Virus record (IMG/VR): IMGVR_UViG_3300002219_000827
Span: 1-54,896 of that record
Reading direction: 5' to 3' (one strand)
Length of the DNA: 54,896 nucleotides
Origin: a virus
Lineage: Duplodnaviria > Caudoviricetes
Part shown: positions 486 to 54,896 of the stretch, in pieces
Layout of the letters: every line of letters begins with the position of its first letter
Position numbering within the stretch: position 1 is the first letter of the stretch
Notes under the pieces: generated by a model
The model's input: the letters and a program-made list of their open reading frames with translations, nothing else
The model's database searches: none
Told to the model about the DNA's origin: nothing
Program-made: the position numbers and the translations under genes

Positions 486-994
486 ACCGTGGCCAGTCTT
501 CTTTGCAATATCTCATTTTGATAGAGCCTTACCAATTGATTGGGATGCACCGAAGCCGCCGAATATCCCGAAAACCAGCCCCTGGTTTGCAATACCGCAC
601 AACAAACTTCCGAACAGAACCAATCCTGCGCAGACTGCCAGCCAATGGGGATAGGCAGAAACGAGAACAATACCCCGCGCACATCGTATCCACATTTCGA
701 ACCGTCATCACGCCACTGCTCTTTTCTGCACCATTCGCGGATTGAATATTCATCATCGGGAGACACCGGCAGGGGGAAGAAATCATACATGCTCATGCGT
801 TCGCCAGGTGGTGGACCTTTTACAAAAGAAGTAGCCCCCTTAAACTCCCGTGAGGAAAACCACGAGCCATCTGAAAAAACCAACTCCACATGGCAATAGG
901 AAGGGAGTCCCTTGGGCTTGCCGAAATACGTCCAAACCTTGATGACTTTGCCGAAGAAAGAAGTAGCCTCTTTTTTAGCTGCAAGATACATCAT
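482..994 (-). CDS. Permuted papain-like (YiiX/YebB-type NlpC/P60) protein
   Basis: HVEL...GYD...WFCSE motif order (His before Cys); start at 994 (MMYLAA) gives an ATGA overlap with the endolysin stop. Confidence 0.6.
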   Translation of the reverse strand: MMYLAAKKEATSFFGKVIKVWTYFGKPKGLPSYCHVELVFSDGSWFSSREFKGATSFVKGPPPGERMSMYDFFPLPVSPDDEYSIREWCRKEQWRDDGSKCGYDVRGVLFSFLPIPIGWQSAQDWFCSEVCCAVLQTRGWFSGYSAASVHPNQLVRLYQNEILQRRLATV

Positions 995-1659
995 GCCGCC
1001 CTCCTCAATATCCACTCAAATGTCTCAGCATAGTCGGCGATCCGTTTTGCCTGGTCCTGCCCATTAATAATTTTCCTTGCCAAGAGGTAATTGCACGTGG
1101 CGTCGTTAATGTAATAACTTAGGCGCTTGCCGGTATACAGTCCATGACGCATGGCGTGAGAAGCTGCGATATATGATATTTCCGGGTCCAGCAGGGCGTC
1201 CGGGTCGCCGGAATCATTTGGCTGATCGCCAACCGTCAAATCAAACTTGCGACCATGCTTCGCTTCCCATCGGGCAATTACTTCCGGGTAGGCTTTTGGC
1301 AATTCCCGTTCGAGCATTTCATAATTGTTTTTCCCGGTGTTTTGAGATAGTCCGCGTCCAGGGTAGTCCGCCCCTTCTTCCGGAGTATCGTTACCAAGAA
1401 CCTTCCCTACTTTGGTTTGGCTCCCGTACCGCTTGATAAAATATTCTCGGGTGCCGTATTCCCTGATTGGACGGAAAGTGTCTCCGGTTTCCCACTTGAA
1501 CGTGGCGAACATATATGCCGCCCACCGGATGTCCATTATTTTGTCATCAGCTTCAAGGAAGCGCAGAATGGCTTCGAGGGCGTTCACCTGAGCCTGCTTG
1601 ATTCGTCCAAACTTCCTGCGATACCCTTCGAAAAATGTCTTACGGTCCACTATTCTCAT
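991..1659 (-). CDS. Endolysin, glycoside hydrolase family 19-like
   Basis: YMFATFKWET, GRGLSQNTGKNNY and ARKIING motifs of phage GH19 lysins. Confidence 0.8.
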   Translation of the reverse strand: MRIVDRKTFFEGYRRKFGRIKQAQVNALEAILRFLEADDKIMDIRWAAYMFATFKWETGDTFRPIREYGTREYFIKRYGSQTKVGKVLGNDTPEEGADYPGRGLSQNTGKNNYEMLERELPKAYPEVIARWEAKHGRKFDLTVGDQPNDSGDPDALLDPEISYIAASHAMRHGLYTGKRLSYYINDATCNYLLARKIINGQDQAKRIADYAETFEWILRRAA

Positions 1660-40983: not shown

Positions 40984-41013
40984 CGTGCCCCCCTTAAAAT
41001 GTCACCACATACG

Positions 41014-41196
41014 TCAAGATTCCACCCGATCCCCACACCAGATAATCACGGTACTCTCATCATGGGCATCAATATCAACATCCTCAACCTCGGCCAAATA
41101 TGCACCGACATCGATTAAAACCGGACTATCTCCAGGAAGAGTTTGTTTCAACTCTTCGAGCTTGCAAATCAAATCATCTAAGGTAATCACCACCAA
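41014..41196 (-). CDS. Small hypothetical protein
   Basis: GGAGG RBS; packed in the operon. Confidence 0.5.
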   Translation of the reverse strand: MVVITLDDLICKLEELKQTLPGDSPVLIDVGAYLAEVEDVDIDAHDESTVIIWCGDRVES

Positions 41197-41231
41197 GCCT
41201 CCTTGGGTTTTCCAAGCTTCTCCTCCTGCGG

Positions 41232-41579
41232 TTATGCTCCCGCTTCGGCATCTTTTACGGTAGCGTCAATCCTTTCCCGAAACATGGCATATTCCAATAT
41301 TAGGTAATTGATTTCGTCACAAAATTTCTCATTCAGCATAGCTATAGTTGGCAACTTCCCGGCCTTCAAATCTTCCAGCATGTCAGCCAGGGAAACGCTG
41401 TGTTTTTCCTTCATTCCCACAAGGGCTTGAATCGGGTCACATCCAAGACGGCGACCGGCCACGATAAAATTATGGAACCTCTCACCGTTTCTGCTGTACT
41501 CTATCGCCTTTTTTGCCAAGACATCAGTAGTATTGGCTTGCAATTCTTTGACTATCTCTTTGAATCGTTCAGGGGTCAT
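41232..41579 (-). CDS. All-alpha nucleotide pyrophosphatase-like / nucleotide-modification-associated protein
   Basis: KAIEYS...FHNF...DEINYLIL pattern. Confidence 0.45.
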   Translation of the reverse strand: MTPERFKEIVKELQANTTDVLAKKAIEYSRNGERFHNFIVAGRRLGCDPIQALVGMKEKHSVSLADMLEDLKAGKLPTIAMLNEKFCDEINYLILEYAMFRERIDATVKDAEAGA

Positions 41580-41591
41580 TATTTTGTCTCC

Positions 41592-42020
41592 TTACAGGTA
41601 TTCTAAATTAACTCCGGATTCTTGGTACATCTCATTGGCTAAATCAAAATCATCTTTCCACCGCTCCAGCTTGTCAGTAGCGGGCTGCTTAGTTACTATC
41701 CTGCCAATACCAGCCTGGATAAGCTGGGCCGCGCATCTGGAACATGGGGGCATAGGATAAACATATATCGTACAGCCAGTTAGATCACGGTTAGCAAATG
41801 ACATGGCGTTTTGCTCTGCATGTAAAACTAGTCGATACTTTGTCTCTCGGTTGCCCAGTCGTTCGCTGGTGTCATTTACGCCCTGAGGAAAACCATTAAA
41901 ACCAAGGCTTACAATACGCTTACCATCGGTAATGACAGCACCGCATTTAGTTGACGGATCTTTCGACCATCCAGCAATATGCTGGGCCAAGTTAATAAAT
42001 CGTTGATCCCAATTTGTCAC
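41592..42020 (-). CDS. dCMP deaminase
   Basis: SKDPSTKCGA, GFNG, HAEQNA, PCSRC; GTG start after GGAGG. Confidence 0.9.
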   Translation of the reverse strand: MTNWDQRFINLAQHIAGWSKDPSTKCGAVITDGKRIVSLGFNGFPQGVNDTSERLGNRETKYRLVLHAEQNAMSFANRDLTGCTIYVYPMPPCSRCAAQLIQAGIGRIVTKQPATDKLERWKDDFDLANEMYQESGVNLEYL

Positions 42021-42394
42021 CACCAAGCCTCCTGTTTTCTTTTTTCCACCTTCACCGTCGGCATCCCCACCGTATCCCATGGATACGGCCCACTACTCGG
42101 CTCGATACTCTCCACCAATCCACCCGGGAAAGCCGTCAAAAACGGTACCAACAGCGCCGCCTTATCCGGAGTCATCCCCGAGTCCTTCAACCGCTGAATC
42201 TCCCGGCCAGACAAAACCAACCGCCCGGACTCGACCCGGCGGTTACGCTCCGCCGGGTCGTCGGTAATATCAATCTCCAGGCCGTCCCTGGTCCGGATCG
42301 TCACGACAACAAGGGAAAGCGTATCTTCACCCACAAAGCCCCCACCCACAAACCGGACAGGTAGCACAACCACCCTCGTGCCGCAACTCGGCAC
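42017..42394 (-). CDS. Hypothetical protein (start uncertain)
   Basis: Packed in the operon. Confidence 0.4.
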   Translation of the reverse strand: MPSCGTRVVVLPVRFVGGGFVGEDTLSLVVVTIRTRDGLEIDITDDPAERNRRVESGRLVLSGREIQRLKDSGMTPDKAALLVPFLTAFPGGLVESIEPSSGPYPWDTVGMPTVKVEKRKQEAWW

Positions 42395-42550
42395 CGCATT
42401 CCTGACACCTATCCACTAACATCGCCCAGGTGCCTCATATTCCATTTCTCAATCAACCGGCAATACAGCTCACACCCCTGATATCCAATCTCACACCCCT
42501 GACACGGATGCTTGACATACCCCTCGCTGTTTTCCATGATCACACTCCTC

Positions 42551-42587
42551 AAAAAAATGGCCGGCGAGATGGAGGCCCCGCCGGCCC
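42551..42587 (-). terminator. Terminator-like hairpin
   Basis: GGCCGGCG...CGCCGGCC followed by T7. Confidence 0.45.
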
Positions 42588-42595
42588 AAAGTCAG

Positions 42596-43312
42596 TTAGA
42601 CAAACACAGGGATACCAGGCAGCTCGGTTTCCAGGTACGCCTTGATATTCTGTTTCGCCACCATCTCCCATGCGCCCATATCCGCCTCATGGAGTGACAA
42701 CGTAACCGGCTCGCTCCGGAGTCTGAATACAAACTCACTAGCAGGTTGCTCCACTTCGGTAAACGTTCTGATCGGCCTGAGAACCGGACGAAGCGGTAAA
42801 ATTTTCCCGCTCTCTTTTTTAACCCCACGCTGGTAGGTCACCGCCTGGGTAACACCATCATCGATCACTTCCGCCTTGTCCTCGCAGCAAATCTTCCCGG
42901 CCACCTCAAGGATCTTGTCCAGATCCTCACCCTGTTTGAACGTGGCCAGCAACTTGATAACGAAATCTTCCTGAGTAAGCCAGGTTCCAAAGGGAAATGG
43001 CTTCTGATCCCACTCCGCAGTAATAATCTGGTCCCGGTTGCGCCATGGTCCCGAAACCGGCAAAAACGCTTGCACAACTGTCGGGGAAACGATCTGCAAG
43101 GCAACACGCACAGGATCGCACCCGATTTCTTTTCCATCAAAGCCGCTTTTCAGATAAGCCACCAGCCCCTGCAATGTATTGACCTGCAGAGCGGGAAACA
43201 TCGGATCCTGAATAGAAACCAATCCCTTCGAGGCAAACTCCCGGCCATCAGACGTAAAGTAATGCTCAACCATCCCTAGGTCCAAAATCTTCTCAATAAA
43301 CGCTTTAAGCAT
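42596..43312 (-). CDS. Conserved phage protein
   Basis: DDGVTQ and LRPIRTFTEVEQPASEFVFR motifs common in temperate phages. Confidence 0.7.
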   Translation of the reverse strand: MLKAFIEKILDLGMVEHYFTSDGREFASKGLVSIQDPMFPALQVNTLQGLVAYLKSGFDGKEIGCDPVRVALQIVSPTVVQAFLPVSGPWRNRDQIITAEWDQKPFPFGTWLTQEDFVIKLLATFKQGEDLDKILEVAGKICCEDKAEVIDDGVTQAVTYQRGVKKESGKILPLRPVLRPIRTFTEVEQPASEFVFRLRSEPVTLSLHEADMGAWEMVAKQNIKAYLETELPGIPVFV

Positions 43313-43478
43313 GCAAACTCTCCTTTACCTAAAATATTTTTTCAGCATCAAGTACTTCCGGCGCAGGCCCTGGTTGAACCGGACCCCAAATCCGGACCGA
43401 TACAGCCGGGTACGCGGTACCGCCCAATCCCCGTACACCAGTTGCGGCAGCGCCTTCGCCTTCAGTCCCCGCATATCA

Positions 43479-43847
43479 CTACTCCCCAGCCGCCGACTTA
43501 CCGCCGTCCATCACCGAAACAGCATCCCGATTCATCGGCAGAGACATCTGCGTAGGATCATGTTCCCATGCCAGGACCTTGCCCCCTTGCTTGCCGAAGA
43601 ACATCCGGGTACCCAACGCCACCGCAGGAGCCAACTTCGAGCTGGGGATAATTGCCACCATCGCCGTAGACCTATCCCTATCAGGCTTGATCTTCACCGT
43701 AATCGTAACCACCCGGACCGTATCCGGTTCGGTATTCGGGTCCATGATGTTCGCCAGGACCTTATCCAGCTCCTCATCAAAAAGCTGCCGCACCCCGCCA
43801 CCCTTCAAATTGTCCAAACTGACCGTATCACCATCCGTCAATGCCAC
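43479..43847 (-). CDS. Conserved phage protein
   Basis: VLANIMDPNT...SKLAP motif, typically paired with the downstream gene. Confidence 0.7.
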   Translation of the reverse strand: MALTDGDTVSLDNLKGGGVRQLFDEELDKVLANIMDPNTEPDTVRVVTITVKIKPDRDRSTAMVAIIPSSKLAPAVALGTRMFFGKQGGKVLAWEHDPTQMSLPMNRDAVSVMDGGKSAAGE

Positions 43848-43871
43848 GTATAGCCTCCTTATCCGTAATAA

Positions 43872-44204
43872 TCACGCCGCCAAAAACCTGCCGTCCCGTC
43901 CCCGCACCCGCTCTTTTTTCACCTTCGGCAACCGAAACAACCGCTTAACATGACGTTCCGTAGCATCAAACACCGCCTCCGCCTTCGCCATGTTCTCACC
44001 CTGAAAGGAATGACTGACATAATCATCGGTCGCCCTCGCCAGGGCCGTACAGGCCGCATTCAGTTTGTTGTGAACAAAACTCGAAGGTTTTTCCAATTTC
44101 ATCACGGCCTCAATGCAGCAGAGCCCGATTGTCAACAAAACCGCCCGCTGCTTATCCTCAGTCGTAATCACCTTAACCGCCGTCACCAACTCACCTCCTT
44201 TCAT
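43872..44204 (-). CDS. Hypothetical protein
   Basis: Ends RGRDGRF; packed in the operon. Confidence 0.5.
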   Translation of the reverse strand: MKGGELVTAVKVITTEDKQRAVLLTIGLCCIEAVMKLEKPSSFVHNKLNAACTALARATDDYVSHSFQGENMAKAEAVFDATERHVKRLFRLPKVKKERVRGRDGRFLAA

Positions 44205-44434
44205 AATTCATAATTCAACCTTCATCCTTGCCTTTCTACGGCGCACACCCCTCAATACCCTTGAACCAGACCGGCTCATGATCCGGGCAGTGATACAGCA
44301 AACCTCCGCAGTAACGAGAGACGACAAACTTTGCCTTTACATCCGTTCGCCTCTCGCTATCGCACTCCCTGGCAGCCGCACACCACTCACACGGCGACTT
44401 CTGAGTAGGTTTTATTTCCCGCCCGGACCCCATA

Positions 44435-44827
44435 CTATGCCGCCCGCAAGCTCTCGACGGCCCGCAGCAGCTCCGCAACCGCAAACTTCGCCGGCCGCCC
44501 CTCAGCCTGCAGCGCCGCCTTAATCCCATCCAGCACCTGCATCAACTCCAGCGGATAACAGACCAGGCCCATTCGATGCGCCAGCCAATCCAGGGGAAAC
44601 TGATTACCCATCTTCTTCATCAGCAATTCAATTTTGTCCGGCGGGAAAGAGCGTGAATCAGTAGATCGCATCATCCGCGAGAAATGGCAGTAATCGATCT
44701 TCAATTCCCAAGCGGCTGACTCCGGCGCCTGGCCCGCCAGCAAATAACAGCGCCGCAAGGCTTCCGTCATATTCGGCACCGTATCCAGCAGATCCGCATA
44801 CGAACCACCTCCGATTATTTCAGACAT
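44435..44827 (-). CDS. CII/YmfL-like DNA-binding regulator
   Basis: HTH-like AAWELKIDYCHFSRMM, LDWLA..G; start overlaps the intI stop. Confidence 0.55.
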   Translation of the reverse strand: MSEIIGGGSYADLLDTVPNMTEALRRCYLLAGQAPESAAWELKIDYCHFSRMMRSTDSRSFPPDKIELLMKKMGNQFPLDWLAHRMGLVCYPLELMQVLDGIKAALQAEGRPAKFAVAELLRAVESLRAA

Positions 44828-45836
44828 GACAAACCTCCATCTTATCCATCGGGCTCCGCACGGAGCACCCCTTACCCATCACATGGGTATAAATCATAGT
44901 AGTACGCACATCCGCATGGCCCAGCAGTTCCTGGACGGTTCGGATATCGTAGCCATCCTCCAGCAAGTGAGTCGCAAACGAATGCCGGAATGTATGACAA
45001 CCGCCGGGCTTGACGATCTGCGACTTTCCAACCGCCTCTTTTACCGATCGCTGCAAAACAGTCTCATGGATATGATGCCGCACCGGCCCGTTTGGAGCCC
45101 AACGCGGATCAGTGCAAACCTTTCGAGCCGGGAAAATGTAATACCAACCCCAGGTAAACGGTGCCTTCGGATACTTCTTATGCAAAGCGCCAGGCAGGGA
45201 AACACCGATCCCGTTCGCAACATCCTCTCTATGTACCTCCGCCACGCTCTCCAGGTGAGCCTTCAGCGGTCCGCAAACAACCGCGGGCAACATCACTACC
45301 CGATCCTTACTCCCCTTGCCCTCACGGACAGTCACCGTCTGTCGCTCGAAATCGATATCTTTCACCCGCAATTGCAGGCATTCATTCAATCGCAAACCAC
45401 ACCCATAGAGCAAAGAGGCCATAATCCTGTCTGCGCCATACAGATGCTGAAAAACGGACGACACCTCCGACCGGGTAAAAACAGTCGGCAACCGCTTCGT
45501 TTTCTTTGACCTCACGGCGTCGATATTTCCGATTTGCTTGGGAATGATGTGCTTATAGAGGAAGACCAGAGCATTTAACGCCTGGTTCTGTGTGGCAGGT
45601 GCAACATTGTGATCAATCGCCAGATGAGTCAAAAACGCCTCAATCTCAACCTCTCCCATCTCAGATAGCGGCCGCCGGCCATGGAAGAAGGAAAACCGCT
45701 TGACCCAATCACCATAGGTGTCTGCCGTTTTCGGACTGTACCCCTTAACCCGACACGTATTGCGAATCAGATCCAGAACGCGAGGCTTCTGCTGGTTTTG
45801 CGAATGCAAGGTTTGCTCAACAGGTTTAGTGTTCAT
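44820..45836 (-). CDS. intI: Integron integrase, intact
   Basis: LLYGCGLR, KGSKDR, HTFRHSFATHLL, QELLGH..TTMIYTHV, plus the integron-specific insert (SLPGALHKKYPKA..WGWYYIFPA..DPR..RHH); AAGGAG RBS before MNTKP. Confidence 0.92.
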   Translation of the reverse strand: MNTKPVEQTLHSQNQQKPRVLDLIRNTCRVKGYSPKTADTYGDWVKRFSFFHGRRPLSEMGEVEIEAFLTHLAIDHNVAPATQNQALNALVFLYKHIIPKQIGNIDAVRSKKTKRLPTVFTRSEVSSVFQHLYGADRIMASLLYGCGLRLNECLQLRVKDIDFERQTVTVREGKGSKDRVVMLPAVVCGPLKAHLESVAEVHREDVANGIGVSLPGALHKKYPKAPFTWGWYYIFPARKVCTDPRWAPNGPVRHHIHETVLQRSVKEAVGKSQIVKPGGCHTFRHSFATHLLEDGYDIRTVQELLGHADVRTTMIYTHVMGKGCSVRSPMDKMEVCHV

Positions 45837-45892
45837 TTTCTGACTCCTTTCAATACATTGAGTTAAAATCACGTGGTGGAGATAGACTGCAT

Positions 45893-45917
45893 AGAAGCGG
45901 TCCAATCATTGTTAAAC
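45893..45917 (+). mobile_element. attI-like site (core GTTAAAC at 45911)
   Basis: GTTRRRY core 75 bp upstream of intI, pointing away from it; conserved in the second copy. Confidence 0.6.
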
Positions 45918-46640
45918 CAACTCAGCTACAGCAACGCAGTACGGATCATTGGGTGAAGGGTCACCAGCCATCAGCTTGGCAAATGAGACATTGTGCTGGT
46001 TGGCTCGTCTGAGCGCGTCGAACTCGCCCCGGCAAGGGTGAACGTCATCAGGGCCGATGATATGGACGCACCATTCCGTTTTCTTCCCACCTTCTCCGGG
46101 CCGCACGGTATCGACGTATTGCATTATTTCACTGACCGCATCTATGACGTTTTCAGGGAAGAGGTCTGTGTTGCTGTAGGCCAACACCTCGCCGCAAACG
46201 ATGTCAGAGAGCCTGGCCATTTCGCTCAATTGATGCGTGTATGACCGCTCCATTTCCGCGAACTGCACCCGTAGTTGTTCAATTTCAGCGTCCTTCATTT
46301 GCCATATGCCCTGCTTGAGTTGCCCGAGTTCGATTATTGCGGCCTCGAGCTCTTCGCGAAGTTTTATCTCCCGGCCTACGGCGTTCACAACATCTTGATA
46401 ACTCTGTGACCAGCCATAATCACCTTCGACGCATTTTTGCTGTTCCCGAGATTGAACCGTGTTGCACATGGCAGCTACGCCGCAACCTGCGAGCTGTACA
46501 CGCAGTTGTTCCACGTCAGCCCTCAGAAACATTATTTCGTCCATAAGGTGTAACGCCGCCTCTTCAGTGCAAATTCCAGTTTTCCGGACGTAGTTTGAAA
46601 GTTTGTCGAGATTGATGTTCCTGCGCTTATAGTCGCTCAT
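45912..46640 (-). CDS. Hypothetical accessory protein (242 aa), first position after attI
   Basis: Its TAA stop lies inside the GTTAAAC core. Confidence 0.7.
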   Translation of the reverse strand: MSDYKRRNINLDKLSNYVRKTGICTEEAALHLMDEIMFLRADVEQLRVQLAGCGVAAMCNTVQSREQQKCVEGDYGWSQSYQDVVNAVGREIKLREELEAAIIELGQLKQGIWQMKDAEIEQLRVQFAEMERSYTHQLSEMARLSDIVCGEVLAYSNTDLFPENVIDAVSEIMQYVDTVRPGEGGKKTEWCVHIIGPDDVHPCRGEFDALRRANQHNVSFAKLMAGDPSPNDPYCVAVAELV

Positions 46641-46652
46641 AAATTTCCTTTT

Positions 46653-47063
46653 TTAACCCCTGAACTTTATACCGTCACCGTCGAAATAATGGCCTTGACG
46701 GTCATTAAACTCTGGGCATATTTTGTCAATTGCTTCCGCCAAACCTTCCATCCATTCAGCTTGATTTTCTTTCCGGCAGGTCATCACGTATCCAATAAAT
46801 TTGCTCATAACGCCTGCGGCAGGGTCTTGACGCTCATTCCACTTAGTTTCAGCTTCTTCCCCACTCTCACCGCACGGCCCTTCACATTCACACTTTCTGC
46901 ACACCACAAAGAAGAGAGGAGGTTCACCTTTCAATATCTGCTCATCGATGTACAGACTCTCCCCCCCGCAAAATGGACACTGTTTCAAACCAGTTGCATC
47001 CTCAAGGGCTTCCTGATCGCACTTGCAGTTAAATGTTGATGTATCTACCGTTGATTTACACAT
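46653..47063 (-). CDS. Lar-family (restriction alleviation-like) Zn-ribbon protein
   Basis: LKQCPFCGG...VVCRKC...A..KWNER. Confidence 0.7.
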   Translation of the reverse strand: MCKSTVDTSTFNCKCDQEALEDATGLKQCPFCGGESLYIDEQILKGEPPLFFVVCRKCECEGPCGESGEEAETKWNERQDPAAGVMSKFIGYVMTCRKENQAEWMEGLAEAIDKICPEFNDRQGHYFDGDGIKFRG

Positions 47064-47093
47064 GACCCCTCCCGCTGATTTGCAAAGCTGGTA

Positions 47094-47597
47094 TCAACAA
47101 TAGATATTTTCGTAATTATCAACATCCCGGCACGTTATTTCGTAAAAGCGCCGCTCCGTATCAGGCCAGTTAGTCAAGTCGACTCCAAACTCAGGCACAT
47201 TTCTTTCCCATGTACTGTCCCGGAGTCTTTTTGCCTCTTTGTACGCCATAGTGTCGGAATGATGAGGCCCGATAATTCGGAGCATGTCTATGTCTGCCTG
47301 GCAGCCTAATGATTTGATATATTCCACAAGCTTGTTATATTTCACGCTACAGTTTGATAAACCGAGATCATCAGGAAGCCTCTGATTAACCATCTTCCAA
47401 TCATCAGCGAGAACAGCAACCGACGACGGCGAATACATTTCTCTTGAAGGATGGTCAGTATCCCCAATGGCCATAAGGTCACAAATACACAGACTTTCCA
47501 TACCCATCAGCCACACAGAAGTGTCACCCCAATCAATCCGCTTGATCCCCCTGCATTTTCCGTCCTTTAATGCCTGTACCGCTTCGATGAATGTCAT
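47094..47597 (-). CDS. DUF2829/Tad2-like N-terminal domain protein
   Basis: MTFIEAVQALKDGK..IKR..W ... PS...LADDW signature. Confidence 0.55.
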   Translation of the reverse strand: MTFIEAVQALKDGKCRGIKRIDWGDTSVWLMGMESLCICDLMAIGDTDHPSREMYSPSSVAVLADDWKMVNQRLPDDLGLSNCSVKYNKLVEYIKSLGCQADIDMLRIIGPHHSDTMAYKEAKRLRDSTWERNVPEFGVDLTNWPDTERRFYEITCRDVDNYENIYC

Positions 47598-47599
47598 GT

Positions 47600-48301
47600 C
47601 TCACCCCACCGCCAAAATCAAACAAGTCAGCACCACCAGCAAAATCGCCGCCCAATCCCCCAGCGCAAACTCCCGCCGGCACCGGCACCCCTCCTCAAAC
47701 AAAAGCCCCTCACCCTCACCATACGCCCGCATGATCTCTTCACCGCAACCAGGACAAACGCTGTGATAGACTCTCATAAGAAATGCCCTCCAAAATTCCC
47801 GGATAAACGCCTCTCCCGCAGCAGCCGCCACAGTGCCCGGACCATACAGCACACCACCGGACTGACAATCGCCGAAGCAGCACACCAAATAACCACCTCT
47901 TCCAGAGTAAACAGTGTCTCCACAACCCCTCCCGATCCCCGTATCTACGCCGCCTGCCGCACTTCCCAAGATCGCATCGCTCTCACCCGCTCCGCATACC
48001 GCGGATAATGAAGATCCAGACAATCCTCACAGATCCCGCCCGTAACCGTATTCCGGCCACCTTCAGAGGACTTCGCTCTCAACCTGCTCCGGCAGTGCAT
48101 ACACTCAACGATCATCATGCCGCCTCCCTTGCCAGCCGTGAGGCTTTCGTTATAGCCCGCTTGCGAATACGGGCAGCCGATGTGTAGTTACCCTGGCACT
48201 CTAAACGTGCAGCCATAATGTTGGCGTGATACACGATATATTCGGCCTTCGGCATGGTTCGCTCTGCATCCAACAACTGCGAATCCTCATACCTCACCCG
48301 G
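47600..48301. repeat. About 700-bp direct repeat, copy A' (paralog of 51312-52016)
   Basis: Long near-identical stretches carrying the same small ORFs. Confidence 0.92.
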
Positions 48302-49130
48302 GCTTGACGATCTGCGACTTTCCAACCGCCTCCTTTACCGAGCGCTGCAAAACAGTCTCATGGATATGATGCCGCACCGGCCCGTTTGGAGCCCAACGCG
48401 GATCAGTGCAAACCTTACGAGCCGGGAAAATATAATACCAACCCCAGGCAAACGGAGCCTTCGGGTACTTCTTATGCAAAGCACCAGGAAGGGAAACACC
48501 GATTCCGTTCGCAACATCCTCTCTATGGACCTCCACCACGCTCTCCAGGTGAGCCTTCAGCGGCCCGCAAACAACCGTAGGCAACATCACCACCCGATCC
48601 TTACTCCCCTTGCCCTCACGGACAGTCACCGTCTGTCGCTCGAAATCGACATCCTTCACTCGCAATTGCAGGCATTCATTCAGCCGTAAACCACAGCCAT
48701 AGAGCAAAGAGGCCATAATCCTGTCTGCACCATACAGATGCTGAAAAACAGCCGCCACCTCCGTCCGGGTAAAAACAGTCGGCAATCTTTTCGTTTTCTT
48801 CGACCTCACGGCGTCGATATTTCCTATTTGCTTGGGAATGATGTGTTTATAGAGGAAGACCAGCGCGTTCAGCGCCTGGTTCTGTGTGGCAGGGGCAACG
48901 TTGTGGGCAATAGCCAGATGAGTCAGAAACGCCTCAATCTCAACCTCGCCCATCTCCGATAGCGGACGTCGACCATGAAAAAAGGAAAACCGCTTGACCC
49001 AATCTCCATAAGTGCTTGCCGTTCTCGGACTGTATCCCTTAACCCGACACGTATTGCGGATCAGGTCAAGAACACGCGGCTTCTGCTGGTTTTGCGAATG
49101 CAAGGTTTGTTCAACAGGTTTAGTGTTCAT
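48294..49130 (-). pseudogene. intI: Truncated integron integrase (lacks HxxR, LGH and catalytic Tyr)
   Basis: Near-identical protein to 44820-45836 but ends at IVKPG, where it is fused to repeat A'. Confidence 0.88.
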
Positions 49131-49186
49131 TTCTTGGCTCCTTTCAATACGTTGAAGTGAAAACAGGTGGTGGAGATAGACTACAT

Positions 49187-49211
49187 AGAAGCAGTCCAAT
49201 CATTGTTAAAC
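49187..49211 (+). mobile_element. attI-like site, second copy (core GTTAAAC at 49205)
   Basis: Same sequence context and spacing as 45911. Confidence 0.6.
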
Positions 49212-49541
49212 CGACTCTGCCAGTGCATCTTTGGCTATGCCCCTGAGATAAGCCGGATCACTTGCCAACGCTATAGCCGTTGCCCCATCCAGCCCGTTGA
49301 TGCTACCGGTTGACTTTAGCTGGTCTTCCTGCATCCACCACACAGGTTCCGAAATTCTGTTGAGTGCTTCGGTCAGTCGCTCAACTTGCTGGCTCAGATA
49401 CATGATCCGATCCCTAGCACCACAGCAGACAGCTTCATGCTCCAAAGTGTCCCGAAACAGCATCCGTACCTTAGATGCCATTTCCAGATCAGAAAGGCGC
49501 CCGTATACCATGTCCTCTTTTTTAACGATGTCGCCTGTCAT
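49206..49541 (-). CDS. Hypothetical protein in a reverse-oriented gene cassette
   Basis: Flanked by GTTAAACCG and CGGTTTAAC. Confidence 0.7.
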   Translation of the reverse strand: MTGDIVKKEDMVYGRLSDLEMASKVRMLFRDTLEHEAVCCGARDRIMYLSQQVERLTEALNRISEPVWWMQEDQLKSTGSINGLDGATAIALASDPAYLRGIAKDALAESV

Positions 49542-49557
49542 AACTGTCCTTTCGCCG

Positions 49558-49599
49558 GTTTAACCAGCGGCCCGACCCGGTGACGCTCAACCGTCATGC
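49558..49599 (+). mobile_element. Degenerate/collapsed attC-like site
   Basis: R'' GTTTAAC ... R' GTCATGC; only 42 bp. Confidence 0.5.
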
Positions 49600-49839
49600 G
49601 CGTCTGTTCCAGCTTTGAATTGCCTCGGCTTTGCTATGCCACCAACACGTCATGCCATGGCAATCCCCCTCACACTCGACCCGCCAGCCCCATATGCCGC
49701 CACTGAATATCTGCTTTGCCGTAATTGATGCCCCACTGCCGCAGAAAGGGCATCTTGATAACAAAGCACTGGACTCAGACGGCCCAAACTCGCAGCCTTT
49801 TTGGTCTTCACATGGTTCTTGGCAAATGTCGCATTCCAT
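49594..49839 (-). CDS. Lar-family Zn-ribbon protein (81 aa)
   Basis: RCPFCG..VEC..C..AEAIQSWNRRA; AGGAG RBS. Confidence 0.7.
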   Translation of the reverse strand: MECDICQEPCEDQKGCEFGPSESSALLSRCPFCGSGASITAKQIFSGGIWGWRVECEGDCHGMTCWWHSKAEAIQSWNRRA

Positions 49840-49878
49840 CTCGGTTCTCCTAGCCACTGGCCAGTTGTGCCGTTCACT
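49756..49878 (+). mobile_element. attC-like site (123 bp)
   Basis: TGATAAC-AAAGC-ACTGGACTCAGACGGC...GCCACTGGCCAGT-TGTGCC-GTTCACT, with canonical 5/6-nt spacers and a paired stem. Confidence 0.5.
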
Positions 49879-50743
49879 ACCACGCCAATTCCGAATGAGT
49901 ACAATCTCCAAGCCATGGAAAGCCGGTGGCCGGATCAACCTCATTTCTGTTTTCGTAGCTCCACTGCTTGAACATGAACGGTACACCAGCATATTTGCAC
50001 TGGTCGCGAACGCTAATTACCCATTGAGGATCAAGCCGACGGCCCTTACTGCCCGACTCCCCACCCAGGATCACGCCATCCAGGCGAGTTACCTCAGGCC
50101 TGTTTGCCCCACCGTGCCAACCTGTCAGAGCATCAATTGAAACATCCGGTTTCCCGCGTTCAGGGGCGTCAGACAGCTTTATGACCAACCGGGTCAGATC
50201 CACTGGTCCCAACATCGGCTCTAAAGAGACGAAGCGCTTTGCAGCAGGTATCTTCAGTAACAAAGGTATCCGCTTGTCTGCTTCCTGTTGATTTTCGACT
50301 GACACACCAAGGACAAGATTTGAAAGGGGGGAATCGTTATAAAGACTGGAAAAAAACTCTTGCATTCTGCCGGCTCTTTTTGTCAGCACGATAAACGTAT
50401 GTCTCGGCAATCTTCCTATCGTAACGACAATCGAATTGACCCACTCAAAAGGAACCGTTTCATGGAATAAATCACCCATACTGGAAATAAAGATACTGCG
50501 GGGTTTCTTCCACTTGTAAGGCTTTTCCAGTTCAGAAGGCACAAAGCCTGTTTTCCCATTCCACTTTTTATAACTGCCTGAACCATCATTAGTGACGTGT
50601 TTGTATTGTACAAAACCCATTGCGGCAAGACGGCTGGCCATACTCTCGGCGTAGCAGTTTTTGCACCCATCGCTGACCTTGGAACATCCCACAACCGGAT
50701 TTATCGTTTCATCACACCAGGATATCTTTGTTGGCATTGGCAT
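49877..50743 (-). CDS. DUF5131 (phage Gp37/Gp68) family protein
   Basis: GCSKVSDGCKNCYA, SMGDLFH, LTKR, GVSVENQ, SLEP, GGESG, FKQW. Confidence 0.85.
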   Translation of the reverse strand: MPMPTKISWCDETINPVVGCSKVSDGCKNCYAESMASRLAAMGFVQYKHVTNDGSGSYKKWNGKTGFVPSELEKPYKWKKPRSIFISSMGDLFHETVPFEWVNSIVVTIGRLPRHTFIVLTKRAGRMQEFFSSLYNDSPLSNLVLGVSVENQQEADKRIPLLLKIPAAKRFVSLEPMLGPVDLTRLVIKLSDAPERGKPDVSIDALTGWHGGANRPEVTRLDGVILGGESGSKGRRLDPQWVISVRDQCKYAGVPFMFKQWSYENRNEVDPATGFPWLGDCTHSELAW

Positions 50744-50776
50744 CCCTCATCTCCAATCAGATCATCAACTTTCATG

Positions 50777-51310
50777 TCAGAGCTCCCCAACCACAACCAC
50801 CGGCAACTCCCTGACAAACTCTGCCTTCCCCTTATCCAAAACCAACACTTCGCCTTCCCCCCGGCGCAAGAAGAGACAAAGCGCATCAACCCGGGAAACT
50901 CGATACTCAGAAACCTTATCCACTCCCCGCTGCAGCGCGAATTCTGCCGCCTTATGAGGAAACAGCGTGTAACTGATCCAGTCTTGCTCTCCGGGCCTAT
51001 GCGCACGGAACAACTCCAGCGGCTCCCGTAACGCCCGAAATAACTCCAACTCGCTCGGCTTCATGATGCTGGTTTCACGATTCGGCCTGTCCGAAGAGAA
51101 CAGCCGCTTCCACTCATCCAGATCGCTCCAACCGGTATAACTCACCCACAAAGTAGAAAGCATGAACCAGTAGGCATAATCAGTCAGACGCCAGGCATAG
51201 CGTGAAAACACCTTGACAGCATCGGGAGTCGCCTCGTAAGGCAGGATCTTCTTCAGTGTCTGCACATCTTTCTTGTTCCATCTGAAATCAGGAGACACGT
51301 CACGCAACAT
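50777..51310 (-). CDS. Hypothetical protein with ADP-ribosyltransferase-like R-S-ExE pattern
   Basis: LFRA..ISYT..A.EFA..RGEGEVLV; start MLRDVS. Confidence 0.5.
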   Translation of the reverse strand: MLRDVSPDFRWNKKDVQTLKKILPYEATPDAVKVFSRYAWRLTDYAYWFMLSTLWVSYTGWSDLDEWKRLFSSDRPNRETSIMKPSELELFRALREPLELFRAHRPGEQDWISYTLFPHKAAEFALQRGVDKVSEYRVSRVDALCLFLRRGEGEVLVLDKGKAEFVRELPVVVVGEL

Positions 51311-51311
51311 G

Positions 51312-52016
51312 CTCACCCCACCGCCAAAACCAAACCAGACAGCACCACCAACCCGATTACCAGCCAATCCCCAAGGGCCAACTCCATCCGGCAACGGCAG
51401 CCGCTTTTGTGCACCAACCCCTCGCCCATCTCCCCGTAGCCTCGCTTGACATCCTTGCCGCACCCAGGACAAACGCTGTGATAGACTCTCATAAGAAATG
51501 CCCTCCAAAATTCCCGGATAAACCCCTCTCCCGCCGCCACCGCCACAGTGCCCGGACCATACAGCACACCACCGGACTGACAATCGCCGAAGCAGCACAC
51601 CAAATAACCACCTCTTCCAGAGTAAACAGTGTCTCCACAACCCCTCCCGGTCATCGTATCTACGCCGCCCGCCGCACTTCCCAAGATCGCATCGCTCTCA
51701 CCCGCTCCGCATACCGCGGATAATGCAGATCCAGACAATCCTCACAGATCCCGCCCGTAACCGTATTCCGGCCACCTTCAGAGGACTTCGCTCTCAACCT
51801 GCTCCGGCAGTGCATACACTCAACGATCATCATGCCGCCTCCCGTGCCAGCCGTGACGCCTTCGATATAGCCAGCTTCCGAATGCGGGCAGCCGATGTGT
51901 AGTTACCCTGGCACTCCAAACGGGCAGCCATAATGTTGGCGTGATACACGATATATTCGGCCTTCGGCATCGTTCGCTCCGCATCCAAAAGCTGCGAATC
52001 CTCATACCGCACCCGG
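51312..52016. repeat. About 700-bp direct repeat, copy A
   Basis: Matches 47600-48301. Confidence 0.92.
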
Positions 52017-52132
52017 TCCGGATCGAGGCCGACAGGACCAACCAGTTCCGGCTTACCCAACATTGGCCGGATTTGCCTCACGACCTCGGCGGCCACAGCC
52101 TTAATATCATCCTGTGAAAGCGTTATTGCCAT
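51830..52132 (-). CDS. Hypothetical early protein (100 aa); 3' part duplicated at 48115-48297
   Basis: GAGGTGG RBS; intact copy. Confidence 0.65.
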   Translation of the reverse strand: MAITLSQDDIKAVAAEVVRQIRPMLGKPELVGPVGLDPDRVRYEDSQLLDAERTMPKAEYIVYHANIMAARLECQGNYTSAARIRKLAISKASRLAREAA

Positions 52133-52141
52133 GATTCCACC

Positions 52142-52375
52142 TCAACCCCTGCAATCGCCACAGGTAAGAGTCCCGTTATTCCACTGAACATACTGGTCAC
52201 TGGCCAGGATTGGTACCCCACACGCAGAGCACTTTCCAAAGCATTCCCGGCCGTCAACCCGCAAAATTTGTGCATTCGGGTATTGCCTCATAAATGAGGC
52301 CATATCGGGCACCACTGTCTCCGTCGTCAAAACATGCTCAACAATCATCGTCTCGGCTCCAATCGATTGGCCCAT
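52142..52375 (-). CDS. Small Zn-finger-like protein (start uncertain)
   Basis: CSAC...CGDC. Confidence 0.5.
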   Translation of the reverse strand: MGQSIGAETMIVEHVLTTETVVPDMASFMRQYPNAQILRVDGRECFGKCSACGVPILASDQYVQWNNGTLTCGDCRG

Positions 52376-52566
52376 TCATGATGGCCTCGTTCAATACCCG
52401 CGTAATAGGCATCAGCCTCAACCGTCCCCATGGCAAACGGATGAGGGATACAAGTCCCCCCATGCCGGAACAGAAAAACCGCCAAACAACCCTCCCGGTA
52501 TTCCACACTCCTGGGAGCGCCGTTGGATAGAAACCCATCAACAATCCGTTCACACTGAACTAACAT
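52345..52566 (-). CDS. Small hypothetical protein
   Basis: Short overlaps with both neighbours. Confidence 0.45.
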   Translation of the reverse strand: MLVQCERIVDGFLSNGAPRSVEYREGCLAVFLFRHGGTCIPHPFAMGTVEADAYYAGIERGHHEWANRLEPRR

Positions 52567-52835
52567 CCCAGTTGCTCCTGCAGGGCCGCCTGCTCCACGC
52601 GGATCCGGGACAACTCCAACGTCATATGCTCAGACATATCCGTCAACTGCCGCAGGCGCCACATCCGGTCCATGGTTTTCATGAACAGACGCGACCAATC
52701 GCCACCCCGGTCTTTTTTATCCGCGACCTTCAGTTTGCTGTCGCAAAACGCCTCCGCATCCGGAATCAAAGCATCGCGCTTCGCGACATAGGCGCTATTG
52801 CCGTAACACATCCGTTCAATCTTATTTCTACCCAC
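52560..52835 (-). CDS. Hypothetical protein
   Basis: GAGGAGG RBS. Confidence 0.55.
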   Translation of the reverse strand: MGRNKIERMCYGNSAYVAKRDALIPDAEAFCDSKLKVADKKDRGGDWSRLFMKTMDRMWRLRQLTDMSEHMTLELSRIRVEQAALQEQLGC

Positions 52836-52975
52836 AGCATCCTCCTCGGCGATAACTCAAAATGGAATCTCACTACTCATTCCAGGGCATTCAACCTCAA
52901 CCCTGTGCATCCACTCGTCAATGGTCTCTTCCTCACCCGGCAGAACCAACGGCCAATCCTCGTCATAGGGCATAG

Positions 52976-53263
52976 CTACCTCCACAACCGGCAAGTCAAA
53001 CCGTTCCGCATCTGGACTGTTCCGCCACGATTCAAGCGCTTATTGCAGGCCGGACACGTATACTGCGAGCCGACGGACCCATCAGCATGCCTATGATCAC
53101 AGGGAAAAGGCGCTTGTGACCAGCCAGTGGGTAAGCTCAACAAATCAGGCTCACCGTCGCTATCAATCTCCACCGGCCTCGACCGCTTTCCGCAACAGTG
53201 GCAAATGGCTGAGGACTTCACGCTTTGACAAGTTGTTAATCCAGCAGGCATTTTCAGACACAT
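52976..53263 (-). CDS. Zn-finger-like early protein
   Basis: CHCC...CPAC; first gene after the cro-like gene. Confidence 0.5.
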   Translation of the reverse strand: MCLKMPAGLTTCQSVKSSAICHCCGKRSRPVEIDSDGEPDLLSLPTGWSQAPFPCDHRHADGSVGSQYTCPACNKRLNRGGTVQMRNGLTCRLWR

Positions 53264-53312
53264 TGCACTGTCCCCTTTCAGTATTTTGCGGATTGCGAAC
53301 CAGCTGATAGGC

Positions 53313-53333
53313 TGTTCAACATAGTTATGAACT
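53313..53333. promoter_or_regulatory. 21-bp motif copy 5 (TGTTCAACATAGTTATGAACT)
   Basis: Immediately after the cro-like stop. Confidence 0.55.
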
Positions 53334-53604
53334 AGGCAGCATGCTCTTGTCCGGGAGAAGCGAGAACCAGCAAATCATCATCAGCCAACAGGCTATAATA
53401 TTTGCGTTCGACTTTTCCTCCTGGGGCCGGCACATAAGTCCCGTTCATAAAGTTTCTAAATTGTGTCTCGTTAATGTTTTTAGTTCTAGCCCACGGTCCA
53501 AACATGCGGCCAGTTTCTTCAAAACGTTTGCGAGTTTTGTCCAAATCTATTTTCATCTTTGTCAACCCATTGATATTGTGATATATTTTTTGAATCTTCT
53601 TCAA
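53332..53604 (-). CDS. Cro-like DNA-binding protein (alternative start 53556)
   Basis: Divergent from the XRE repressor; WARTKNINETQFRNFMNG HTH-like. Confidence 0.6.
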   Translation of the reverse strand: MKKIQKIYHNINGLTKMKIDLDKTRKRFEETGRMFGPWARTKNINETQFRNFMNGTYVPAPGGKVERKYYSLLADDDLLVLASPGQEHAA

Positions 53605-53705
53605 TAAATTGTTATTGATACAATAACTTTGTTATTATTTATAAATACAAAAGTTATCGTTGTCAATATATTTTTATGCCATAAGCAATAATAAGTTGGG
53701 GACAA
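53605..53705. promoter_or_regulatory. Divergent immunity control region
   Basis: Leftward TTGACA-N17-TATAAA (53666-53638); perfect palindrome GTTATTG-ATA-CAATAAC (53611-53627). Confidence 0.7.
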
Positions 53706-54146
53706 ATGAGAACTGGCGAAAAGATAAAAAAAATTAGAGAAGAGTTGCGTATGACTCAGACTGAATTTGGCAAAGTTTTAACAGTGGCGCCTAACTATAT
53801 TGGGCTGCTCGAACGCGACCGAAAATCGCCATCCGATAAACTTATAGACTCCCTAATTAAACGCTTAAACGTGAATGACCATTGGTGGGAAACCGGCGAC
53901 GGGGAGATATTCAATAAAACAGGGGGGGCACCACCAGCCCCTACAAATTTGGCATACTACTCAGCGAATAACGTAAAAGAAGCCGCCCTGGAATATTTCA
54001 AACAGTGCGGGATCATGCCGTCCGTAGCAGAGCAAGTAATTGAAGAACTGGCCAAACTAGATAAAGGGCACCAACTGATAGAGGCGGGGAAAATTGTCAA
54101 CGACGTAGCGGATATCCTCGAGGAGATGGACAAGAAGCAAAAATAA
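53706..54146 (+). CDS. CI-like XRE-family repressor
   Basis: IKKIREELRMTQTEFG..YIGLLE..PS, WWETGDGE; no S24 peptidase domain seen. Confidence 0.8.
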   Translation: MRTGEKIKKIREELRMTQTEFGKVLTVAPNYIGLLERDRKSPSDKLIDSLIKRLNVNDHWWETGDGEIFNKTGGAPPAPTNLAYYSANNVKEAALEYFKQCGIMPSVAEQVIEELAKLDKGHQLIEAGKIVNDVADILEEMDKKQK

Positions 54147-54170
54147 AAGGCCGGATTGCTCCGGCCCTTC
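54145..54170. terminator. Hairpin between convergent genes
   Basis: GGCCGGA-TTGC-TCCGGCC. Confidence 0.5.
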
Positions 54171-54173
54171 GGT

Positions 54174-54332
54174 CTACTGATATGACTGATTACTATACCT
54201 GACACACAATTGGGATCCCGCTGCAGGTTCTATCACTGTCATCACGAGCAGCAGCAAAATCGGCAGTGGAAACCGTTGTCTCAAAAATCGTTTCAGGAGT
54301 GATATCTTCTCAGTGTCGGTCAGTTCGTTCAT
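54174..54332 (-). CDS. Small hydrophobic peptide (52 aa), not in ORF track
   Basis: GGAGG RBS; MNELTDTEKISLLKRFLRQRFPLPILLLLVMTVIEPAAGS... Confidence 0.4.
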   Translation of the reverse strand: MNELTDTEKISLLKRFLRQRFPLPILLLLVMTVIEPAAGSQLCVRYSNQSYQ

Positions 54333-54560
54333 ACTTCCTCCATGTCAGTATTTTACAACAACGCAACAACAAGCACTTTTAATGCCTCACAAGCAGGTGA
54401 GTCACATTCACTAATTAAAAATGTTATCATTTTGATGTTTCCAGGGCTCAAATTGCCGTTTCCAACGGTGATAAAATATCAATGTTTGCGCTATTTAATG
54501 TCAAACTGATAATCATTTGACCGGTTTACAAAAACCATTCTCCTTCCGATATATAGTTGA

Positions 54561-54896
54561 ATGGCTACAAAAAAAGACATCGATGACCGATTTAGAGCAA
54601 ATCTGATCCGCCTGCGACATATCAAAGGCATTACCCAGGCAGAACTGACAGAGCAATCGGCAGTTCATAACCTGGGACAAATAGAATCCGGCGCACGATC
54701 AGCAGGGAAAGAAGCAGTTGCTCGCCTGGCCACTGCCCTGGACGTTGACATATCGGAATTCTATCGGCCGATCATGGATGATCTATTAAAACCGGAAACA
54801 ACCCTGCTTCGGATCTTCAGCAGTCTCACGCCGGCAGGGAGATGGTTTGTTGTGGATGTTCTGAAAGCGTTTGCGAGGTTTTTAAAATCGAAGTAA
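54561..54896 (+). CDS. XRE-family HTH regulator
   Basis: NLIRLRHIKGITQAEL..IESG..RLATALDV. Confidence 0.8.
   Translation: MATKKDIDDRFRANLIRLRHIKGITQAELTEQSAVHNLGQIESGARSAGKEAVARLATALDVDISEFYRPIMDDLLKPETTLLRIFSSLTPAGRWFVVDVLKAFARFLKSK

Follow-up and report, generated by a model that had tools for sequence, protein, structure and literature searches.

Bacteria capture genes by means of integrons, and recent work has shown that these stock systems of anti-phage defence. Here we describe an integron-like locus that is carried by a temperate phage; an intact integron integrase gene (intI) with an attI-like core beside it, set within the phage's early operon, with two blocks of small accessory genes upstream. 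The locus lies in IMG/VR virus record IMGVR_UViG_3300002219_000827, a provirus-classed record of 54,896 nt (86% complete by CheckV) that was analysed whole, and which we refer to throughout as the window. Synthesising the evidence set out below, we hold with moderate confidence that it represents an In0-like phage integron ‘platform’ (intI plus attI), whose cargo is probably fossil and whose second unit was stacked in tandem by illegitimate recombination.

The sole precedent that we found for integrons in phages, none of whose cases is close to the window, is the study of Qi et al. 2023 (PMC9892861). Among 10,705 phage genomes that article counts 3 complete integrons, 1 In0 (intI present, no attC nearby) and 17 CALINs (clusters of at least two successive attC sites without an integrase); its supplementary tables may hold further phage cases. 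The IntegronFinder 2 paper, in its accessible portion, states that few replicons were phages, and a preliminary description of the window, made from its letters alone, was fair in calling phage integrons rarely described. No paper on co-directional phage platforms or on ‘flipped’ cassettes, both of which are taken up below, was found in our searches of the literature. A tblastn search with the window’s IntI against 50,697 phage records returned 10 records, all below 47% identity and including the Qi et al. cases and Virus Rctr41k; megablast of positions 44000-52500 against 50,697 phage records gave no match, and a scan of genome contigs gave no relative above ~53% identity, apart from one 63% partial match.

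Two described cases resemble the window in part. The In0 of Vibrio phage Va_PF430-3_p42 likewise has intI and an attI-like site, with no attC-bounded cassette; as far as the available text of PMC9892861 goes, it is a captured orphan host intIA at a prophage edge, whereas the window’s intI (41% identity) sits inside an early operon and recurs in a relative phage, known from three records. In Shewanella prophage M16-3, according to the same text, two attI copies each head their own gene block and the IntI is 95% identical to that of S. oneidensis. The window shares this layout in one prophage, with two attI-like copies that head their own gene blocks, but M16-3 has a host-type IntI (45% to the window’s) and real attC arrays, while the second unit of the window is a truncated duplicate without attC.

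Bacterial integrons at large, both class 1 and sedentary chromosomal, share with the window a TIGR02249 integrase bearing the attC-recognition insertion, and a GTTRRRY core beside intI that reads away from it. They differ in that the window’s intI is co-directional with its neighbours, has a stop that overlaps the next phage gene, and is accompanied by no attC. Phage anti-defence islands provide a second point of comparison, as these also cluster small counter-defence genes in early regions; and the tandem stacking of the second accessory block resembles the amplification of anti-defence loci, to judge from the available parts of two reports (PMC11724313; PMC13096335). Neither islands nor amplification, however, has a tie to an integron-type recombinase, and the window joins two diverged parents rather than amplifying one.

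An intact integron integrase in a phage early operon

Nearly all of the window’s genes are carried on the minus strand, and its PHROG matches include terminase large subunit, portal, head closure, DNA methyltransferases and dCMP deaminase. The phage is temperate, with a cI-like helix-turn-helix gene at 53706-54146(+) opposite a cro-like gene, and a CII-like gene (44435..44827) after the integrase. The integron-like stretch lies within the early operon with phage genes around it, as the preliminary description had it, and by its layout intI would be co-transcribed. Four features are central to the argument:

44820..45836, minus strand: intI, integron integrase, 338 aa from ATG, with a TIGR02249 match, the catalytic residues and the IntI-specific insertion
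45837..45917, minus strand: attI-like region, a 75-nt spacer plus GTTAAAC core, with a ~31-nt conserved block next to the core
48294..49130, minus strand: intI', truncated second copy of intI, 278 aa from ATG, without box II (HxxR, His, Tyr)
49131..49211, minus strand: second attI-like region, with GTTAAAC at 49205-49211

The intact intI reading frame spans 44820..45905(-), being open up to a TTG at 45905, but the start is likely to be the ATG at 45836, which stands behind an AAGGAG conserved in five sequences. Across the 23 codons of the TTG extension, 8 positions differ between the two window copies; as these codons diverge while the IntI bodies stay 96% identical, the 75 nt upstream of the ATG are non-coding. 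The protein matches TIGR02249 (‘integron integrase’) with 403.7 bits against a cut-off of 265, over profile positions 1-315 of 315, and also matches PF13495 and PF00589, the latter with 190 residues for 156 profile positions. An alignment with IntI1 of a P1 record, with two chromosomal IntIs and with further IntIs of phages shows the box I Arg, Lys, HxxR, His and Tyr all in place; the insertion that is specific to IntI, between patches II and III (of the ALxKKYP...W.W..F...TDPR...RHH type), aligns with that of IntI1. An intact IntI with the integron-specific insertion had been proposed at the outset, and this holds; to judge from its residues, the enzyme is apparently functional. Its stop overlaps the CII-like gene by 8 nt, again as first described.

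The second copy, by contrast, matches TIGR02249 with 287.4 bits over profile positions 1-258 of 315 only. It is cut after residue ~278, just before HTFRHS, and therefore lacks box II and the catalytic Tyr; from its sequence, intI' is predicted to be dead. The two IntI copies account for both PF00589 matches in the record.

A conservation boundary at the attI-like core

The GTTAAAC at 45911-45917(+) lies 75 nt from the intI ATG and points away from intI, in agreement with the distance and canonical orientation first reported for it, and different genes lie beyond it and beyond its second copy, so that the variable block noted beyond each core is real. The putative crossover would fall between 45911 and 45912, that is, at G/TT on the plus strand and TAA/C on the gene strand (the slash marking the crossover). 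GTTRRRY occurs 20 times on the plus strand of the 54.9 kb, against ~54 expected, and because the heptamer alone is not above chance, the weight of the core rests on comparative data.

Four alleles were compared at this point: the two window copies (winA and winB), L003, and a groundwater relative from run X2 (90-95% identity). The L003 sequence is held in three records (L003, L004 and L007; two from IMG/VR and one metagenome contig) that are identical over the compared stretch and, being identical DNA, were counted as one relative (98% IntI identity). On the gene strand, winA, winB and L003 are alike from the C of TAA/C onward and unlike upstream of it; L003 homology resumes at window position 45914, its own heptamer being AGATAAC and not GTTTAAC, and the match to the run X2 relative ends at 45914, with 126 unlike letters beyond. 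Apart from IntI, two more distant sequences, L099 (72% IntI identity) and L100 (68%), have no protein in common with the window at E<=1e-4; both keep AAC plus RATGATT..CCGC..ATGC.G.CTATC at the same distance from intI, and in the resulting five-sequence alignment conservation begins at the AAC. The 106-aa open reading frame (ORF) upstream of the L100 core likewise ends in TAA/C. Class 1 attI1 (L084, the P1 record), viewed in the same orientation, follows the same plan, with a ..TAA/C core and then TAAC-containing direct repeats; the window has a TTTTAAC ~50 nt from its core, toward intI. Since conservation ends at G/TT in four alleles and in two relatives at 68-72%, and a conserved block of ~31 nt then follows, we suggest that the core behaves like an attI, with the ~31-nt block presumably being bound and cut by IntI.

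Ahead of this 106-aa ORF in L100 lies a 143-nt gap (5434-5576), which opens at the TAA/C where a radical-SAM-like ORF stops and closes on a GTTAGGG, 20 nt short of the ATG. It contains a 9-bp inverted repeat and is attC-like by eye; the attC model described in the next section did not call it.

Search for attC sites

Beyond intI and its core, the preliminary description had also placed attC-like sites in the right-hand gene block, and spoke of a ‘complete integron’ that shuffles counter-defence genes by IntI/attC recombination. The gaps between the cargo genes measure 12, 30 and 3 nt in block A and 52 nt, ~37 nt (or an overlap), 33 nt and 2 nt in block B; 2-52 nt in all, as against 58-129 nt for control attC sites. 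No RYYYAAC...GTTRRRY pair occurs in either cargo block. A relaxed AAC..GTT scan gave 54 candidates (12-15 per strand and block), and the 8 of lowest energy in each list (32/54) all lie inside ORFs at background energies; this energy-based hairpin scan recovers the attC sites of the phage L005 at energies no better than coding background, and is used descriptively only.

A more discriminating search was made with an attC covariance model, R2 (12 pairs), built from 6 sites of L005, 7 of the metagenome integron L024 and 1 class 1 aadA site, all on the intI-sense strand. A first model, R1, was left unused, RNAalifold having given no consensus pairs. R2 finds untrained sites in L070 (6, of which 4 at E<=0.01), L026 (3) and the class 1 record L084 (2 more), and further ones in L024. 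Run with default filters, it reported nothing at E<=10 in the whole window, L003, L051-L053 or Rctr41k; with filters off over 41000-54896, its best match (42 nt at 52536-52577(-), 8.9 bits, E 2.2) lies outside the cargo and is not significant. Taken together with the gene spacing, and its limited reach notwithstanding, this negative is enough for the attC claim to fail. Without attC, the window does not amount to a ‘complete integron’ and offers no substrate in cis for either attC x attC or attI x attC recombination.

The 52-nt gap at 49542-49593, ahead of the 111-aa gene, looks by eye like a shortened attC; a GTTAAAC stands 23 nt from the ATG, and TGA/C is followed by an L-box-like GGTTGAG. 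As a relic attC it was rejected; it has GAC instead of AAC at the cleavage triplet, receives no model score and is not significant.

A complete and active phage integron, with cargo reshuffled through the window’s own attC sites, would account for the intact IntI, the attI-like core and the by-eye likeness of this 52-nt gap. Set against that are gaps too short beside the control sites, a best score of no significance from a model that does recover untrained sites in L070, L026 and L084, and the GAC of the relic; we regard this reading as already largely refuted, and very unlikely to be right. What the window does present is intI with no attC nearby, which is the In0 arrangement, and in no place two attC sites in a row, as a CALIN would have. 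Its cargo ORFs are all on the intI strand and read toward intI, rather than being transcribed away from it as is typical (Pc promoter).

Phages with attC arrays beside intI

The phage that supplied six of the training sites, L005 (IMG/VR UViG_3300032255_000005), lies in a 42.6-kb record with an HK97-type capsid gene; it also encodes a C5-methyltransferase and, at the contig end, a lambda-type integrase, and its IntI is 48% identical to the window’s. Upstream of its intI stand ORFs of 60-104 aa separated by gaps of 70-106 nt; together these make up an array of 6-7 cassettes (L005:7960-9990), co-directional with intI. The gaps are attC sites (42-53 bits, as training members of the model), and at 6/6 of them the TAA of the preceding plus-strand ORF falls inside the R box (R' box), with the next ORF starting just after. 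The same stop-in-box layout is seen at 2/2 sites of L103 and 1/2 of L168.

Read on the intI-sense strand, the 10 sites of these three phages have AAC-G in 9/10 and TT-GTT in 9/10, and the 24 canonical sites of L024, L026, L068 and L070, whose ORFs are antisense to intI, have AAC-G in 24/24 and TT-GTT in 20/24. As the two patterns match, the phage arrays keep the canonical geometry of intI and attC, with the same attC strand polarity relative to intI as those four loci, while their ORFs are flipped; that is, the ORFs lie on the opposite strand from those of canonical bacterial cassettes and end in the R' box. Flipped in this way, they read together with the phage operon and intI. In the inverted-intI integrons of Spirochaetes, intI and the cassette ORFs also share one direction, but there intI is upstream and reads into the array; in the window and L005 it is the array that lies upstream and reads into intI, the polarity of intI and attC being canonical and the ORFs flipped.

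None of the 7 L005 cassette ORFs, nor the 106-aa ORF of L100, matched a Pfam family. The PF05065 capsid family was not found in the fragments that hold L100, L101, L103 and L168, which at 40-59% completeness are uninformative in this respect.

For a wider view, a profile scan of IMG/VR yielded 270 IntI-like stretches, of which the best 80 loci were kept (L097-L176). R2 has 18 matches at E<=0.01, in 11/82 viral loci, and all are on the intI-sense strand and upstream of intI; by array type L103 and L168 are like L005, and most other loci are canonical or ambiguous. In the 3 kb before intI, genes are divergent in 7/7 genome-contig loci; the 66 viral rows divide into 27 co-directional, 35 mixed and 4 divergent, a tally that includes duplicates (six rows for L003, two each for L005 and L051) and comes from a greedy and noisy ORF caller, which calls L003 ‘mixed’. 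In 21 of 61 non-redundant viral loci, TAA/C closes the co-directional open frame that stands nearest to intI on its upstream side, with C following TAA in 21/28 and TGA in 6/29, some of these TAA/C ends being canonical attI boxes met by a chance open frame. A LexA box within 250 nt upstream of intI was found in 0/62 non-redundant viral loci, a further difference from bacterial integrons, as 4/14 genome and 3/15 metagenome loci (7/29 together) have one; so does 1/2 of the phage-database loci.

IntI genes also occur in other placements. The backbone relatives L051, L052 and L053 are variable between the 57-aa gene and CII and have no intI there. L051 encodes a 43%-identical IntI (11284-12492) ~3 kb downstream of that place, with no other tyrosine recombinase in its 97%-complete provirus record; its kin are L094-L096. 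Rctr41k (L083, KX853513) carries an IntI relative (43%) at 4680-5678, annotated ‘xerD, integrase-like’, among its early genes, with a 4-nt overlap with the upstream gene and methyltransferase genes downstream. On the cI side, the metagenome contig L007 continues for 5.5 kb past the end of the window, and there has at 3-1067(-) a gene of 355 aa (cut by the locus end) with a PF00589 match of E 0.034, below the cut-off; judged by its sequence, this is probably a lysogeny integrase that is absent from the trimmed provirus records.

That gene bears on whether IntI might itself be the lysogeny integrase, with the phage integrating through attI (acting as attP) x attC into the cassette arrays of host chromosomes. 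The window and the L004 (94% complete) and L051 proviruses do, after all, contain no tyrosine recombinase other than IntI; in about 14/80 IMG/VR loci, tallied from match positions, intI lies no more than ~250 nt from the start of the contig or provirus, as lysogeny integrases often do; and a Vibrio anguillarum prophage flanked by attC sites is described in the available text of Qi et al. (PMC9892861). We nevertheless consider such a role improbable, as phage genes run contiguously across attI in both the window and L007, L007 has the integrase-like gene just mentioned beyond its cI side, and L005 has two other tyrosine recombinases in addition to IntI, one of them at the prophage end.

Origin of the second unit

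Self-BLAST of the window pairs 45004-45926 with 48298-49220 (R1a and R1b, 91.8% over 923 nt) and 47595-48301 with 51308-52016 (R2a and R2b, 90.3% over 710 nt). The order on the plus strand is the 3' end of intI, R1a, cargo A, R2a, R1b, cargo B and R2b, with the second repeat pair and the join between the units as follows:

47595..48301, minus strand: repeat R2a, with a 140-aa gene, a 57-aa zinc-ribbon-like gene and the 3' 60 codons of a 100-aa gene (truncated copy)
51308..52016, minus strand: repeat R2b, with a 141-aa gene, a 57-aa gene and the 3' part of the intact 100-aa gene (51830-52132)
48298..48301, no strand: duplication junction, a 4-nt CCGG present in both parents, where the middle of the 100-aa gene is joined to the middle of intI

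The junction was read from a three-way comparison of 48250-48350, 51965-52065 and 44955-45055, together with the self-BLAST ends. This R2a/R1b joint is not at any core site, and the sequence on either side indicates that the second unit is a product of microhomology-mediated illegitimate recombination, not of core-site recombination. As the units are 8-10% diverged, where a fresh duplication would be identical, we attribute it to unequal recombination between two related phages. The shuffling of counter-defence genes by IntI and attC, as originally envisaged, thus lacks not only its attC sites; the second unit did not arise by that route, and its integrase copy appears to be dead.

In the run X2 relative, a contig joins 47731 to 51452, so that 3720 nt are skipped. 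This relative has a single unit of the 141-aa and 57-aa genes, which is a mosaic of the window’s two copies.

The whole block, or at least its second unit, might be an assembly artefact in which two co-occurring strains, or the phage and integron DNA of a host, were joined; two strains would differ by just such a margin, and the Logan contigs listed for run X1, a hydrocarbon metagenome that may be the source sample, break at the repeats. We find such an artefact highly improbable. Run X1 gives cargo A a depth of 92.7 and cargo B one of 105.2, with 74.7 and 105.4 in the unique flanks; this fits both cargo blocks being in one genome, as the unique-flank depth equals that of each block and not their sum. 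A search of sequencing runs for the locus listed no RNA data set. Assemblers do not join at a 4-nt overlap, and among the contigs listed none had the missing 3' end of the second intI copy. A chimera with host DNA, which the preliminary description had named as a possible undoing, is also countered by the overlap of intI with the next phage gene, and by the presence of the same intI in the same phage context in the relative sequence known from three records.

A proposed model for capture, fixation and stacking

Drawing these findings together, we propose the following model. Transcription would start from the phage early promoter region near 53.6 kb, pass through the accessory genes into intI and continue to the CII-like gene; IntI would be made at the start of the early programme, and not under a LexA box, because it would come from early read-through transcription. 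The attI-proximal genes, at least, probably arrived as cassettes by attI x attC recombination, from a phage-type pool in which the ORF is on the attC bottom strand with its TAA stop in the R' box; L005 is one of the related phages that are still so arranged. The attC sites would later have been lost from the window genome, and because they are gone the cargo would now be fixed. Unequal recombination at the CCGG microhomology, between two phage genomes ~9% diverged, would have stacked the second unit (an accessory block plus the 5' part of intI). Support for a cassette origin may be seen in the window’s 111-aa gene, listed below, whose L005 homologue is an attC-flanked cassette gene.

We also speculate, more tentatively, that phages keep integron platforms of their own, wired into early operons, expressed by read-through in place of LexA control and served by a ‘mirror-image’ cassette pool, and that the window phage both gathered its Tad2-like, Lar-like, ART-fold and DUF5131 genes by this route and can still capture at 45911/45912; this stronger version is possible, but we would not lean on it. 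Since the ORFs of the pool are on the attC bottom strand with TAA in the R' box, a captured cassette would be co-directional and expressed at once with the early genes, and any new capture would come from co-infecting phages of the L005 type.

Several points weigh against this model. There are only four close alleles, and winA and winB are still alike at ~11/16 nt past the core, which makes the boundary there less crisp than G/TT. The conserved block could instead serve intI as a promoter, an operator or a 5' leader. At their far ends the variable blocks stop at plain gene boundaries or at a break within a gene, such as ordinary phage mosaicism gives; of the gene turnover expected at G/TT among relatives, only the boundary at the core has therefore been borne out, the other ends falling between genes or, at 47369, within one. 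No attC was detected in the window, L003, L099 or L100, and for this reason the attI x attC insertion is something we infer and do not see; R2 was itself trained on three attC types and gives some true L068 sites only 16-18 bits, so that unusual attCs could escape it. Among the run X1 contigs listed, none crosses 48298. Lastly, in a quick version of the IntI tree the phage IntIs stand on long, unresolved branches (end branches of 0.92-1.75, with a stem of 0.67 for the window plus L003), which could mean changed function; this tree shows neither a single nor a multiple origin for them.

Much of the same evidence might be explained by a recombinase that has been domesticated for some other reaction, such as Xer-like multimer resolution or an inversion/excision switch, with cargo turnover reflecting ordinary mosaicism at a ‘moron’ hotspot. 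The conserved upstream block would then be the enzyme’s own site or a promoter/operator, and the nearness of the accessory genes coincidental. The missing attC sites in the window and its closest relatives, the breakpoints mid-gene and at gene boundaries, the illegitimate duplication junction and the long phage IntI branches can all be accommodated in this way, as can the occurrence in L051-L053 of a variable region at the same place without intI (the 43% IntI of L051 being elsewhere) and the ‘xerD’ gene of Rctr41k, packed among early genes and with no attC match nearby. Yet the insertion that recognises folded attC is fully kept, and the boundary coincides with the canonical crossover both in the four alleles and in the two distant relatives; wherever an ORF abuts it, the stop is TAA/C, and related phages have true attC arrays beside such IntIs. 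On balance, we think domestication rather unlikely.

Should our proposal of a phage platform with its own cassette orientation and regulation be correct, the arms race between phages and bacteria would gain a symmetric, site-specific route for the exchange of counter-defence genes, and the small ORFs of phage arrays, such as the 6-7 Pfam-less cassettes of L005, would form a catalogue of candidate anti-defence proteins. The window taken alone teaches something plainer; a cassette array that works takes more than an intact intI and a core motif, and the doubling of this locus is ordinary illegitimate recombination. The wider viral pattern is the more striking of the two and deserves a dedicated study.

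Cargo genes

The two blocks hold the following genes, listed from intI outward:

45912..46640, minus strand: A3, 242-aa protein, its TAA stop inside the core, with no Pfam, NCBIfam or PHROG match
46653..47063, minus strand: A2, Lar-like restriction-alleviation protein, 136 aa (PF14354 37.0 bits, cut-off 28.6; phrog_599 1.1e-10)
47094..47597, minus strand: A1, N-terminal Tad2-like (DUF2829) protein, 167 aa (PF11195 30.4 bits, cut-off 25, residues 1-70 only)
49206..49541, minus strand: B4, 111-aa protein (tblastn 67% over 55 aa to L005:9000-9164)
49594..49992, minus strand: B3, Lar-like, ORF of 132 aa (PF14354 27.8 bits, just under 28.6; phrog_599 9.3e-11)
49877..50743, minus strand: B2, DUF5131 protein, 288 aa (PF07505 264.4 bits; phrog_2045 2.5e-87)
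50777..51310, minus strand: B1, 177-aa protein (phrog_25265 1e-39) with a C-terminal ADP-ribosyltransferase (ART)-like fold

Judged by these matches, ‘counter-defence-type’ seems a fair label for the cargo. The original assignment named two Lar-like genes, one DUF2829/Tad2-like gene, DUF5131 and one ART-like gene; the first Lar and the DUF5131 genes stand, the Tad2-like match passes its cut-off over the N-terminal 70 aa only, the second Lar-like gene falls just short of its cut-off, and the ART-like gene has no Pfam match and is recognisable at the level of fold only. B3 likely has a shorter start, near 49839. The 242-aa protein returned only leads from the Protein Atlas, at 0.88 or below and none usable. 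L003 has a version of A1, whose homology to the window’s Tad2-like gene breaks mid-gene at 47369.

The family of the 177-aa protein has at least 338 members, none of them with a Pfam domain, in Bacillota, Capsulimonas and many metagenomes, and R102, R105, E152 and E154 are invariant in 30 sequences; these may be read as an R...ExE motif. Its predicted model is well supported (pLDDT 92.1), with a best Foldseek E of 0.04. For residues 82-177, ART-fold chains occupy all 50 rows listed, the best VIA-align Z of 7.1 being middling (below 8; rmsd 2.9 over 89 aligned residues), and we accordingly describe the model as ART-like in fold and go no further. The nearest named Protein Atlas cluster is DRAT at 0.85, which we treat only as a lead.

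The DUF5131 protein (49877-50743) also matches TIGR04471, ‘radical SAM mobile pair protein A’, weakly, with 52 bits against a cut-off of 355. Finally, well away from the integron-like locus, a single ORF of 4255 aa occupies 2669-15436(-), and accounts for nearly a quarter of the phage genome.

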